In this document: piece by piece, positions 837-4,587 of the stretch | How positions within the stretch are numbered: position 1 is the first letter of the stretch | How the letters are laid out: each line of letters begins with the position of its first letter | The notes under the pieces: model-generated | Databases searched by the model: none | What the model saw: the letters and a program-made list of their open reading frames with translations, nothing else | What the model was told of the DNA's origin: nothing | From: a virus | Length of the DNA stretch: 5,100 nucleotides | Reading direction: 5' to 3' (one strand) | IMG/VR virus record: IMGVR_UViG_3300034033_000029 | Translations under genes and position numbers: made by a program

Positions 837-1388
837 TTAGCTAACCGCGTTTTGCATGGTTGGGGGTTTAACGGCAAGCCGTTGAACAGATATTTGTCCC
901 GTTGCTCGAGCAGTAAGAGCGGAACTAGCATCAAGAGCTATTCCGAAGAACAGAGGGCGACCGAAATAAGTGTCGCCACTGACCAGGTTAGGAACCATTA
1001 TTAATTCATCAATTGAATTAAATATGGGGATTACATAGACCTGGTTGACATCATCATCAGCGCCTGTGATCGAGGCTGGAGCGTAACCGATGATTAGATG
1101 AGATGCGATATCGACGAGAGTCGTTTGTATATCGAGAGATGCTTTTACGCGGTAAGGAGCGTTATCACCGATAGGCTCTTGCATATAAACACCTATGGCT
1201 TCACGGTAGCCAGCGGTAATAGTAGCGAATTCACCGACTGCTGCATCCGCAACGTCAGAATGAACAGCTGTTTTTGCATTGACGAGAATGTTACCAGCCG
1301 ACCGAACTGTTTCAGTTGGCCAGGTGAGCTTCGCGGCGAGGGAGTTTGTCCAGATACCATCGCGTTGAATATTTTTAGGAGCGCTCAT
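837..1388 (-). CDS. 183-aa beta-rich structural protein in the gene-G position (putative major spike protein; function assigned by position only)
   Basis: ATG 1388..1386 overlaps the F stop as ATGA (1385-1388). TAA 839..837 abuts the ATG of the H-like gene. The composition looks beta-strand-rich, with no hydrophobic helix. The size (183 aa) is close to phiX174 gpG (175 aa). I cannot see convincing sequence similarity to gpG by eye. Confidence 0.7.
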   Translation of the reverse strand: MSAPKNIQRDGIWTNSLAAKLTWPTETVRSAGNILVNAKTAVHSDVADAAVGEFATITAGYREAIGVYMQEPIGDNAPYRVKASLDIQTTLVDIASHLIIGYAPASITGADDDVNQVYVIPIFNSIDELIMVPNLVSGDTYFGRPLFFGIALDASSALTARATGQISVQRLAVKPPTMQNAVS

Positions 1389-2680
1389 AACATTTTACCG
1401 CCTTTGGGAAATTCCTGGTCTTTACCACCTGGTCGGGGGTAGCTTTCATCGACGAGCCCGGACATATATGAGTCCATAGAATCGCCGATAGGTTGTGTTG
1501 ATGATTCTTTGAAGAAAACATCGACCATGTAATCATCGAGAGATTGAGAACGAAAGGCACTTTTGACGCGGGTAGCATCTTTAGCTTCCGCTTGAGTAGT
1601 AGGCACCAGCATGTAAGGAAAACTATCACGAATGTCGATAGAGTTTCCGATAACATCGTGGTCGCTACGCCATTGCCAACCGGCGGGTAAGTAGCCGAGT
1701 TGAGTGGTAACGCCATTTTGAATAACATCTTTGATTTGTACAGGTTGTGGCCGAGCCGTAGAGAGATATTCGGGATCGGCAGTCATTTCGAACCAGTCGA
1801 GATTGTCCTTGGCCAGCGGCATACAGCCTTCAATAGTAGAGGCGAAACGGACAGTAAGTAGAGTAACCAGAATACAGTGTTCGGGTGCTACAACACCCTT
1901 GATTTTGTGATTGACGCTGAAGTCAAATAGCGATTGCCATTGCCCGAGGCTTGCGCCGTCGGTAGCTGGAATTTCGCGAGGATTTACGCCGACTTCAACT
2001 TGATCGAGCATGATGGGTACCTGGTCAACTTCGCGCGAGCCGTCACCTTTCCATGTTTCTTTTACAAGTTCCATCCAGCGATTATAGGATAGTACATCGC
2101 GTTTCATTGCGGAACGAAAACGGCCTTGTACTTCTGCGAGATTGCGAATGTCGATAGCTGAAGCGACAGAAACCTCATGATCAGGGGTTGCTCCTGGTGA
2201 GGAATCGAAGCGACAACGATTCCATGCTTTAGATAGAGGTACAGCTTTTACGCCGTGATTGCCGATATCAGCTGCGAGGTAATCGGCGTTTTCAGGCCAT
2301 TTGTACCACTCGTTGACACAGCGTAGATAAGCATCCTGGTAGAATTTGTAGTAATTGGCGAGTACTGCGCCACTTGAACCGATACCGAGAGAGGACCAGT
2401 CGATTTGCGAACTAACGACAGGTGGAGTTATTGCTGTAGCTGGCCCTTCTTTGACATAGTCAGTGAATTCAGGCCAGACCCAACGGAGAGGAACCATAAA
2501 CGTAGCGAGGTGAGCATTGATACGCATCACGTCACGTTCGCGTAGGGCTTCGAGCCGAACCGAACCGCTGATATCGACGTTCATGCGTTCGCCAGGCATT
2601 AGCATTTGCTGCCTGAGACAGTTAACCCGACCGATTTTGCCGGTTTTCAGAGTGTGCCCACCGCGATTAGTTCTGCTCAT
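1385..2680 (-). CDS. F: Major capsid protein F (Microviridae, phiX174-type, 431 aa)
   Basis: Several blocks line up with remembered phiX174 gpF (426 aa). GKIGRVNCL..MLMPGERMNVDISGSVRLEAL matches GQIGRLITI..VIAGDSFEMDAVGALRLSPL. FMVPLRWVWPEFTDYVKEG matches FYVPHRHVYGEQWIKFMKDG. SLGQWQS...VAPEHCILVTLLTVRF matches SLGQFSG...FVPEHGTMFTLALVRF. Its length is phiX-like, well below my recollection of ~530-560 aa for gokushovirus VP1. Confidence 0.96.
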   Translation of the reverse strand: MSRTNRGGHTLKTGKIGRVNCLRQQMLMPGERMNVDISGSVRLEALRERDVMRINAHLATFMVPLRWVWPEFTDYVKEGPATAITPPVVSSQIDWSSLGIGSSGAVLANYYKFYQDAYLRCVNEWYKWPENADYLAADIGNHGVKAVPLSKAWNRCRFDSSPGATPDHEVSVASAIDIRNLAEVQGRFRSAMKRDVLSYNRWMELVKETWKGDGSREVDQVPIMLDQVEVGVNPREIPATDGASLGQWQSLFDFSVNHKIKGVVAPEHCILVTLLTVRFASTIEGCMPLAKDNLDWFEMTADPEYLSTARPQPVQIKDVIQNGVTTQLGYLPAGWQWRSDHDVIGNSIDIRDSFPYMLVPTTQAEAKDATRVKSAFRSQSLDDYMVDVFFKESSTQPIGDSMDSYMSGLVDESYPRPGGKDQEFPKGGKML

Positions 2681-2789
2681 TTTTTGTTTGCCTGTTTAAT
2701 GGTTTCAGCAACATCCTTGGGAAAACGACTAGATCTGCTCATTTTTTATTTGCCTGTTTCATAGTTTCAGCAACATCCTTGGGGAAACG
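2666..2789. repeat. Tandem direct duplication, 2 x 62 nt (2666-2727 and 2728-2789), 56/62 identical
   Basis: Position-by-position alignment gives mismatches only at 2667, 2671, 2686, 2698, 2701 and 2722, against 2729, 2733, 2748, 2760, 2763 and 2784. It duplicates the D-tail / ATGA / F-head junction. Confidence 0.95.
2677..2742 (-). CDS. 21-aa micro-ORF MSRSSRFPKDVAETIKQANKK in the gene-J position, created by the 62-nt tandem duplication
   Basis: ATG 2742..2740 overlaps the D-like stop (ATGA, 2739-2742). Its TGA 2679..2677 overlaps the F start (ATGA, 2677-2680). Net basic (6 K/R against 2 D/E). Whether it is translated is not proven. Confidence 0.45.
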   Translation of the reverse strand: MSRSSRFPKDVAETIKQANKK

Positions 2790-3218
2790 ATGTGCCGAGG
2801 GTTCACCCCCGTAACCACCTGAATAAGCGATTACGAGGGACATTAATTGTTGCACCGACATGTCTTTGACCTCATGAGTGCCGAGTATACCTGACGCGGC
2901 GTCTGCGTCAAATGTATCTGGTGCTTTGGTACAGGCTAACAGCCTGTTTACGGGTGCTACTACTTCTGCGATAAGGGCAGCAACATATTGACCTGGTAGA
3001 GGGAGTGCCGGCATTCCGGCGATAGTCATAGATACCTCGGCCACTGATGCGATAATTGACCGCATTTGCCTAGCCTGATCAGGTGACCAATATTCAGCCT
3101 GAGTGAGTATATCCCAGTGATGTTCATCGATGCCGTGGCCTTTGTGAAGGGTAGTGTATTTGTTTTCATTTTGAGCGAGTATTTGTGCGCCATGTTGAAA
3201 TGCCTTATGGATGTCCAA
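2739..3218 (-). CDS. D: External scaffolding protein D-like, 159 aa, TTG start
   Basis: Residues 68-96 GMPALPLPGQYVAALIAEVVAPVNRLLAC (nt 2931-3017) align with remembered phiX174 gpD GYPRFPAPVEFIAAVIAYYVHPVNIQTAC. The size is similar (159 against 152 aa) and it sits between A and F. TTG at 3218 is the only start after the in-frame stop at 3231-3233, and it is preceded by AGGAG (3232..3228) with a 9-nt spacer. It overlaps the Rep 3' end by 14 nt. Confidence 0.85.
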   Translation of the reverse strand: MDIHKAFQHGAQILAQNENKYTTLHKGHGIDEHHWDILTQAEYWSPDQARQMRSIIASVAEVSMTIAGMPALPLPGQYVAALIAEVVAPVNRLLACTKAPDTFDADAASGILGTHEVKDMSVQQLMSLVIAYSGGYGGEPSAHRFPKDVAETMKQANKK

Positions 3219-4587
3219 TTTCGTTTGCTCCTATTTTAATAGATTTTACTCGTAGTTTTTCACGAGGGAAGATTGTGCCGATGAAAGTATTAGCGATTAG
3301 GGCCTTTGTATCAGAGTACCCGATTTGCTCGGGGAGGAGTTGACTTACCCAATCGTAGAATTGAGATGAATCCATCCTGTCTGGTCTCGCTCCACTTCGA
3401 ACGCTCGATAGCATCTTCGTGAAGGTGCTGGAGTTGCTTGTGATTAGTTCGCTCAAAGTGAGTTGCTTCTGCCTGAATTTCATCAAGTAGAGTTGACGTT
3501 TCGCCACGGAGCGCAGTAATCCGAGAGGCACCATATGGATCCTCATTAGAAAAAGGTTCGTAGTGCTGCTCGGCGCTCTCCAGGTCAGTGCTTCGACGGT
3601 CATTTGATCGAGTTGACTCAGAGCTGCTCGGAGGGTGTTTATCCCGAGATTCCTGGTTGCTTTCATTCGGTGATGCCATTCTTTGTGCTCCTTAGATAGA
3701 TATTTAGTGATGTAGAATCCCGATGTCCTCGGGGTGCTTACTTTCATTGGCCGCCCTGATTTATCGAGTGGGAGACAGAATTGGTGATTGGTTTGATAGA
3801 TATCGGCAACGTGTCTAAAGTAGAGAGCTGGCGATAAATGCGGTAAAGACCATCCCCATAAGGTACGCATTGGTAAACATTCATTGTGTTTGCGGTTGGC
3901 TGGATTTCTGATCCCTTTGTTTGGGCAAGTTCTCCAACTAGGAGGAATTGCCCTGAGCCAGATAATAAAATGGCCGTGATGATGCTCACGACTTTTGCCA
4001 TGCTCGATAACTCCTGCGTACGTAACATACTGAGATTCGCTCCGATAGGGCGGTTTATGGGCTGGTGGTTCGCCGAGTTCCTTACAAACTATATTGACGA
4101 GCCGCCTGATGTATTTTCTGAATGCGCGGCCATCTTGCCATAGTTTTTTGGGGTCTGTCAATTGGGGGTCAACTGTGAGTGTAACGAAGAACGGATACCA
4201 TTCATCCTGGCGTTTTTCTTCTGCTTCCTGTCCGATTCGCCAAGCCCAATTTGATTTTCTGACTACGTCAGCCTTGTGGGACATATTTTTGAGGAAGATT
4301 TTTTCATCCTCGTTATGATTTAGAACGTCAGTCCGGAGACCGAGTTCTTGTTTTTTGTCTTTTAAAGACATTCCAGGTTCGATACCGACCTGGGTTAGTG
4401 TTTGGGGGTAAGTAAGAATTCCAGAATCAAGAATGTCGTGGAGTTCTTCGGTGATGGTATTGATTGTAATTTCATCGACTTTGTCAGAGCGATGTGAAAG
4501 TAAAAGATTGGTGCGCATTTGCGCCCAATATTGTTGAGATTTATTGGAGAATTTTTGTTGTATTTGATCGAGATATGATTTAGACAT
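3205..4587 (-). CDS. A: Rolling-circle replication initiator (gene A type, HUH endonuclease), 460 aa
   Basis: Motif I is FFVTLTV (4171-4191). Motif II is HHHGHFIIW (3958-3984). Motif III, with paired Tyr, is YITKYLSK (3691-3714), compared with remembered phiX174 gpA YVAKYVNK. ATG at 4587..4585, TAA at 3207..3205. Confidence 0.95.
   Translation of the reverse strand: MSKSYLDQIQQKFSNKSQQYWAQMRTNLLLSHRSDKVDEITINTITEELHDILDSGILTYPQTLTQVGIEPGMSLKDKKQELGLRTDVLNHNEDEKIFLKNMSHKADVVRKSNWAWRIGQEAEEKRQDEWYPFFVTLTVDPQLTDPKKLWQDGRAFRKYIRRLVNIVCKELGEPPAHKPPYRSESQYVTYAGVIEHGKSREHHHGHFIIWLRAIPPSWRTCPNKGIRNPANRKHNECLPMRTLWGWSLPHLSPALYFRHVADIYQTNHQFCLPLDKSGRPMKVSTPRTSGFYITKYLSKEHKEWHHRMKATRNLGINTLRAALSQLDQMTVEALTWRAPSSTTNLFLMRIHMVPLGLLRSVAKRQLYLMKFRQKQLTLSELITSNSSTFTKMLSSVRSGARPDRMDSSQFYDWVSQLLPEQIGYSDTKALIANTFIGTIFPREKLRVKSIKIGANEIGHP
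3311..3679 (-). CDS. Overprinted 122-aa hydrophilic ORF inside the 3' half of Rep; candidate internal scaffolding protein (gene B analogue)
   Basis: ATG 3679..3677 is preceded by a perfect AAGGAG (3693..3688) with an 8-nt spacer. The protein is acidic, Ser/Glu/Arg-rich and lacks hydrophobic stretches. Its size and nesting (ending 106 nt before the Rep stop) resemble phiX174 B (120 aa) nested inside A. No sequence similarity to B is recognised. Confidence 0.6.
   Translation of the reverse strand: MASPNESNQESRDKHPPSSSESTRSNDRRSTDLESAEQHYEPFSNEDPYGASRITALRGETSTLLDEIQAEATHFERTNHKQLQHLHEDAIERSKWSETRQDGFISILRLGKSTPPRANRVL

Follow-up and report, generated by a model that had tools for sequence, protein, structure and literature searches.

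The overlap of genes A and B in phiX174 was among the first overlapping gene pairs discovered, and in phiX174 genetics capsid assembly with an external D scaffold normally requires the internal scaffolding protein B. A survey of microvirus diversity describes the phiX174 group as the sole microvirus group having an external scaffold, and it omitted overprinted genes, stating that computation alone cannot verify them (PMC9239249). In viruses that have no gpD-type external scaffold, VP3 is encoded by a separate, non-overlapping gene (PMC9239249). Outside the cultured phages the A/B overlap has been left unannotated. Here we describe a 122-codon open reading frame (ORF) nested within the replication initiator gene (Rep) of IMG/VR virus record IMGVR_UViG_3300034033_000029, a stretch of 5,100 nucleotides (nt) that was analysed at its full length and is referred to as the window. 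An earlier note had proposed this ORF as an overprinted functional analogue of B. Our analysis indicates that it is a genuine overprinted gene and probably a diverged positional homologue of gene B, encoding an internal scaffolding protein.

The host frame of the nested ORF is Rep, a gpA-like replication initiator of 460 amino acids (4587..3205, minus strand; PF23343, phrog_713), with its catalytic motif Y-I-T-K-Y-L-S-K at 3714..3691 on the same strand. The nested gene occupies 3679..3311 on the minus strand, TGA stop included, and lies in frame +2 relative to Rep (4587-3679 = 908, mod 3 = 2). Its ATG (3679..3677, minus strand) is made of the third base of Rep codon 303 (GAA) and the TG of the invariant Trp304 codon (TGG), and its TGA (3313..3311, minus strand) of the T of a Rep TCT (Ser) codon and the GA of a GAT (Asp) codon, 106 nt before the Rep stop when counted from first base to first base. 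A Shine-Dalgarno (SD) sequence, AAGGAG (3693..3688, minus strand), is formed by Rep codons K299 (AAG) and E300 (GAG) at the end of YITKYLSKE and is separated from the ATG by a spacer of 8 nt (cacaaaga). The earlier note had reported the ATG in a frame other than that of Rep, the SD built from catalytic-motif codons with its spacer, and the 122 codons ending 106 nt before the Rep stop, and each was found where it had been placed.

For comparison we used 22 related loci from IMG/VR and metagenomes, with Rep identities to the window of 31–81%, and codon analyses were based on these 22 loci, which represent ~15 non-redundant independent lineages. A +2 ORF of exactly 122 codons was present in 20/20 loci with a complete region (Rep identity ~35–81%), and its position was fixed in all of them: counting from the first catalytic Tyr codon, its ATG is always at +35 nt and its stop at +401 nt. 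As a null for openness, synonymous codons were reshuffled within each Rep, keeping both protein and codon usage, in 5000 trials per genome, and the nested frame remained open in only 0–0.38% of trials per genome, compared with 20/20 real genomes. Over the nested interval the +1 frame contains 5–16 stops, and when both alternative frames were examined along the Rep codon alignment in full, a single stop-free run of ≥40 codons proved common to all 21 sequences, in frame +2 at Rep codons 302–424.

The signals at either end of the nested frame were likewise retained. The codon before Trp304 ends in A in 23/23 loci, though it encodes E, K, Q, A, S or L, and an SD core of AAGGA, AAAGG or AAGGG occupies the same place in 23/23 loci. 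Where a GAN codon comes next, the SD Lys codon (K299) is AAG in 14/14 loci, while other Rep Lys codons are AAG in 43% of cases; in loci where Gly follows Lys the site reads AAAGG or AAGGG. All 20 loci that extend as far as the nested stop have it at one and the same position, as TGA, TAA or TAG, and the Rep residues encoded there vary: the first codon, for Ser, Phe or Cys, ends in T, and the next one encodes D, E, N, K or R. Expression as a -1 frameshift fusion with Rep was rejected in view of the conserved ATG and SD, and in most loci the +2 frame has a stop 1–8 codons upstream of the ATG. A scan for sigma-70-like promoters on the minus strand upstream of the nested gene gave no site, which argues neither for nor against an internal promoter resembling PB.

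We also examined how the nested frame and Rep constrain each other. Among 94 divergent pairs (Rep identity <55%), identity of the +2 translation in the overlap was 37.1% compared with 19.5% under the synonymous-shuffle null, a ratio of 1.91, and the same measure in a Rep-core control region gave a ratio of 1.09; the shuffle nulls are reported beside a control region of the same alignment because they ignore shared ancestry. In the C-terminal half, identity of the nested protein (0.427) is at least that of Rep (0.409). Rep synonymous codon identity is 0.394 in the core and 0.496 in the overlap, reaching 0.56–0.61 under the nested C-terminal domain, and is at background level (~0.40) under the nested N-terminal part. 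In codon usage the nested frame is positively correlated with the other genes (r +0.41), whereas an anti-correlation (r -0.38) is seen for Rep in the overlap; upstream of the overlap, as a control, the Rep frame gives r +0.81 and its +2 frame r -0.04. The persistence of the ORF, its ATG and its SD in relatives and a reduced synonymous variation of Rep in the overlap had been put forward in the earlier note as checks, and both came out in favour of the gene.

Using a profile of the nested protein to search 1.84 billion protein representatives, we obtained 54 clusters (50% identity), mostly called on short contig fragments and without a name, and in 38 of these the length is exactly 122 amino acids. 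All full-length relatives down to an E-value of 3e-25 have 122 amino acids, and more distant ones have 120–129 and retain an N-terminal M-x-x-Q-x-E and a C-terminal ER..W ... PPR..R[IV]L. Taken as far as sequence analysis can go, these data establish the nested ORF as a genuine protein-coding overprinted gene, and the comparison across loci shows its frame, start, stop, ribosome-binding core and protein sequence to be kept by selection across a large clade of microviruses that have a D-type external scaffold (D-scaffold microviruses). We also observed no indel in the overlap (window 3314–3679, and the same interval in loci L001–L021 and L027), which forms 122 ungapped columns in 18 aligned loci, while Rep elsewhere is gap-rich, with 651 alignment columns for ~460 residues; double coding thus seems to freeze length as well as sequence.

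We compared this arrangement with gene B of other D-scaffold lineages. The B start of G4, FL68 and Lilleput consists of the A of GAA and the TG of TGG (Rep K-E-W), that of Vibrio phage vB_VpaM_PG19 (PG19) is AAA TGG (K-W) and that of the alpha3-type NC29 is AAA TGC (K-C), and in a MAFFT alignment all five fall on the column of the window Trp304. In these five genomes B is in frame +2, has 117–120 amino acids and ends 27–28 Rep codons before the Rep stop. The offsets of B within Rep (1217 in G4, 1028 in PG19, 1046 in NC29 and 716 in a pequenovirus) all leave a remainder of 2 when divided by three, as does the 908 of the window. The pequenovirus is that of the Eel River basin (NC_026665.1, locus L028), in which we found an unannotated 116-codon +2 ORF at 717–1064 inside the Rep gene, whose ATG, read from ACA TGG (T-W) in that same column of Rep, has AAAAGGAG 8 nt upstream, and whose 116-amino-acid product ends in ..AAELWNYND....YGRF and matches the end of PF02304 weakly (E-value 0.028). 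This ORF is a gene B homologue missed in the reference record. Its Rep is intermediate between the others, with a 10-residue insertion before the Trp as in the Bullavirinae, and with W-x-x-R-L-T-R-T-L-G after the Trp, which resembles the W-x-H-R-M-K-A-T-R-N-L-G of the window family. The record of Escherichia phage Lilleput (MK629525.1, locus L025) has six annotated genes, without B or other overprinted genes, although a 120-amino-acid B ORF, 68% identical to G4 B, is present at 1188–1547. As judged by alignment, B in each of the other D-scaffold lineages examined starts on the Rep codon column that carries the nested start.

The nested gene shares with B of the Bullavirinae (phiX174, G4, alpha3), PG19 and the pequenovirus a +2 frame in the 3' third of the Rep/A gene, an ATG on one Rep column (xxA and the TG of Trp, or Cys in NC29), a length of 116–122 amino acids, an end 27–35 Rep codons before the Rep stop, and a genome that also encodes a gpD-type external scaffold and an F-type capsid protein. 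As in those lineages, the encoded protein combines acidity and strong hydrophilicity with a high content of Ser/Thr/Asn/Gln, it varies in its N-terminal part and is conserved in its C-terminal part, and codon usage is genome-like in the nested frame and not in that of Rep; an inversion of the same kind is reported for phiX174 A/B in a passage of PMC8227390 that cites Pavesi. There are also differences. The nested start is 11 codons after the first catalytic Tyr, compared with 21–23 in the B lineages, and therefore the SD is formed by the catalytic-motif codons themselves, whereas the Bullavirinae, PG19 and the pequenovirus have ~10–11 additional Rep residues between the motif and the B start. 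Unlike B, the nested gene is not followed by a K gene, and its length is invariant among closer relatives. The E gene of phiX174 inside D, K across A/C and A* inside A are likewise second readings of an existing gene in a very small genome, but E encodes a membrane protein, whereas no hydrophobic segment occurs in the nested protein, the positions or frames of K and A* differ from those of the nested gene, and none of the three is recognisable in the window genome.

In contrast to the arrangement, the sequence of the nested protein showed no relationship to B. Pfam PF02304 (Phage_B) gave no match to the window protein, 18 relatives or four distant relatives even at E-values up to 10, while the positive controls G4 B, PG19 and the pequenovirus ORF gave 2.6e-49, 6e-19 and 0.028, respectively. 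Comparison by hhalign of nested profiles of 18 and 48 sequences with B alignments, with and without the pequenovirus ORF, returned probabilities of 0.1–0.4%, tblastn of the nested protein against GenBank phages had no match at E-values up to 1, and Pfam and PHROGs scans of the nested protein, the 18 relatives and the 48-member set yielded only scattered single matches with E-values >0.01. The C-terminal aromatic coat-binding motif common to B, PG19 and the pequenovirus (..Q.AEF[YW].F.D......G[YR]F) is absent from the nested family, which ends in ..D.F.G.LRLG..PPR..R[IV]L where B has ..EFYRFND..YGYF. This agrees with the earlier proposal of a B-like overprinted gene with no recognisable similarity to B. 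Such a loss of similarity in the nested frame is expected, because Rep itself is only 24–27% identical between these groups. The VP3 of gokushoviruses has the same presumed role, as internal scaffold of a T=1 microvirus capsid, and is likewise small and hydrophilic; there was no Pfam match and no consistent PHROG match across 48 members of the nested family that would link it to VP3, with no dedicated profile-profile comparison with VP3 made.

The nested protein has 122 amino acids, an isoelectric point (pI) of 5.66, a grand average of hydropathy (GRAVY) of -1.27 and 31% Ser/Thr/Asn/Gln, very close to G4 B (120 amino acids, pI 5.31, GRAVY -1.27, and a polar fraction of 0.32 compared with 0.31), so its description in the earlier note as hydrophilic and acidic was accurate, the acidity being mild. 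The variable, acidic, Ser/Asn/Gln-rich N-terminal part comprises ~39 residues (3679..3563, minus strand), of which residues 1–27 are predicted to be disordered, with a predicted local distance difference test score (pLDDT) <50, and conservation begins after the first ~40 residues. In an AlphaFold2 (AF2) model the conserved C-terminal domain, residues 40–122 (3562..3314, minus strand), has pLDDT 83–94 and helices predicted at 50–67, 80–94 and 98–111, which fits the helical-looking central part noted earlier and extends it to the C-terminal part. The conserved motifs of this domain are DP.R, ER..W, D.F.G.LRLG and the C-terminal PPR..R[IV]L. Foldseek comparison of the model with PDB and BFVD returned nothing at an E-value ≤0.001, a wide structure comparison with VIA-align had a best Z of 5.8, within noise for helical models, and a PDB sequence search with the nested profile returned noise only. 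Neither a hydrophobic stretch nor an N-terminal transmembrane helix of the phiX174 E type is present. As the nested protein is not hydrophobic, it is not an E-type lysis protein, and as it is acidic, it is not J-like; both roles are ruled out by composition.

The window represents a single circular microvirus genome with terminal redundancy, the same peptide being encoded at both ends of its 5100 bases, and its long genes are all on the minus strand. Downstream of Rep, whose end overlaps the start of the next gene, lies a gpD-like external scaffolding gene of 159 amino acids with a TTG start (3218..2739, minus strand; PF02925, phrog_1386) and AGGAG 9 nt upstream; its product matches PF02925 with an E-value of 4.8e-6 (27.0 bits, cut-off 25) and phrog_1386 with 5e-16. 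It is followed by an F-type major capsid gene of 431 amino acids (2680..1385, minus strand; PF02305, E-value 1.7e-23), whose product is ~25% identical to gpF across 95% of its length and is the presumed binding partner of the nested protein, by a gene at the G position (1388..837, minus strand) and by an H-like gene that begins at 836 on the same strand. In tblastn searches, Rep and F matched only Bullavirinae, PG19-type Vibrio phages and a few metagenomic records, at 24–27% identity, and the genome therefore belongs to a deep sister lineage of the phiX174 group. This lineage is large, with at least 241 Rep relatives, the majority on 5–6 kb contigs; a scan of genome contigs with the Rep alignment found no relative.

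Several further features were observed in this genome. Among the six minus-strand gene starts, only two have a strong SD, AAGGAG at 8 nt for the nested gene and AGGAG at 9 nt for the D-like gene, those of the Rep, F, G-position and H-like genes being weak or lacking, and this fits with proteins that are required in many copies. A near-invariant motif, CTTG - 10 nt - TCTTAyTTACCCCC, occurs at window 4404–4431 on the minus strand, over Rep codons ~53–62, where Rep synonymous codon identity peaks at 0.59–0.65 and the encoded residues differ among relatives. The known origin sequence (CAACTTGATATTAATAAC...) of G4, FL68, Lilleput, NC29 and PG19 is also in the N-terminal part of Rep and has a CTTGAT core in common with this motif, which is a candidate origin and nick site inside Rep instead of in an intergenic region. 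Rep also contains a 94-codon ORF in frame +1 (window 3744–4028, minus strand), with a hydrophobic stretch over the HUH-motif codons, which recurs in loci L001, L005, L008, L014 and L018. This ORF is not open in all relatives, by which it is ruled out as a second overprinted gene and which bears out an earlier caution that the genome holds other long alternative-frame ORFs and that length alone is weak evidence; it is probably a by-product of conserved Rep codons, and less probably a lineage-limited small membrane protein.

How the nested ORF came to be open, and conserved at this site, can be explained in more than one way. The open frame and its apparent conservation could merely follow from constraints that act on Rep as a protein or on the structure of the DNA or RNA, since +1 frame identity in the overlap is also raised (ratio 1.49), so that nucleotide conservation itself is raised, and the ATG uses an invariant Rep Trp. 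We regard this as very improbable, as given the Rep protein openness has P ≤0.004 per genome and yet 20/20 are open, stops abound in the +1 frame, the nested frame ends at one position although three different stop codons serve there and the Rep residues vary, only the nested frame has a genome-like codon usage, and length and terminal motifs hold among relatives as distant as those of the profile search. A real gene could alternatively have arisen by an independent, convergent overprint at the same site: the Rep Trp codon after an A-ending codon, with purine-rich K-E/D/G codons upstream, offers a ready-made start and SD, no similarity to B is detectable in sequence or motifs, and the SD is drawn from catalytic-motif codons here whereas ~10–11 extra Rep residues precede the start in the Bullavirinae, PG19 and pequenovirus. 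We consider such convergence improbable, because it must match the same column, the same frame, a near-equal length and an end 27–35 Rep codons before the stop in every lineage, and because the pequenovirus Rep is intermediate between the Bullavirinae and the window family, the codon-usage inversion is also reported for phiX174 A/B (in the PMC8227390 passage), and loss of similarity in the nested frame is expected at the level of Rep divergence seen. The same start column, +2 frame, length and composition across lineages therefore lead us to prefer, over convergence, a single ancient overlap that every D-scaffold lineage inherited, and a choice between deep conservation and independent origin that the earlier note had left open now falls towards the former, with B starting on the same Rep column in frame +2.

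A gene at the B position could still have a function other than internal scaffolding, such as a C-like switch from replication to packaging, modulation of Rep, or a host-directed accessory role, and we judge this unlikely, though less so than convergence. Several points weigh against a scaffolding assignment and lend weight to this alternative: similarity to B is lacking in Pfam, PHROGs and hhalign, the conserved C-terminal aromatic motif by which B binds the coat is missing, the compact three-helix domain predicted by AF2 is a small helical fold with no structural match, and the likeness to B in composition may be partly imposed by homologous Rep codons. Moreover, because the family has no recognisable C, K, E or J gene, and the end of Rep overlaps the start of the D-like gene, the nested protein could supply the function of one of these. 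Against such a role, positional homology with B holds in all other D-scaffold lineages, the size, charge and layout of a disordered N-terminus and conserved C-terminus are B-like, GRAVY -1.27 excludes E-type lysis and acidity excludes a J-like protein, and D-scaffold assembly normally requires B, as known from phiX174, with gpD-like and F-like genes present and no other candidate internal scaffold in the genome. An internal scaffolding protein, which we infer from this context, is thus the function that we consider the likelier one. Translation of such a protein would begin within the Rep message at an AAGGAG and ATG of its own, and independent initiation would allow many copies to be made; its disordered acidic N-terminus and conserved three-helix C-terminal domain would bind the inner face of F pentamers, and, acting with the gpD-like external scaffold, it would direct the assembly of procapsids and be released from the particle when the DNA is packaged. 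If the nested protein is the scaffold, its contact with F must have been re-made, the C-terminal signature having been replaced. More tentatively, and with somewhat less than even confidence, we suggest that the Rep/B overlap is ancient and common to the D-scaffold microviruses as a whole (Suborder I as PMC9239249 uses the term), that a single Rep Trp codon anchors its start, and that in the present clade, which is large and uncultured, the B-frame protein became a new sequence family whose three-helix domain is compact and whose C-terminal contact with the capsid protein has been made anew.

These results provide one overprinted gene that is verified by comparative evidence near the strongest level that sequence alone permits, in a deep sister clade of the phiX174 group, together with a simple annotation anchor, namely an ATG on the Rep Trp codon past the catalytic Tyr motif, in frame +2. 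They suggest that a protein at the scaffold position can lose all sequence likeness, the coat-binding motif included, while the gene itself remains fixed at its site. With a nested C-terminal half as conserved as Rep, the family lends itself to studying how constraint is shared by two proteins, and it also bears on which frame arose first; genome-like codon usage in the nested frame and an anti-correlated Rep frame support an old proposal that Rep's C-terminal region was written over a pre-existing B, and not B over Rep. The overlap appears to be older than the split of the D-scaffold lineages examined, which suggests a far greater age and a wider distribution of the textbook A/B overlap than one would gather from the few cultured phages.

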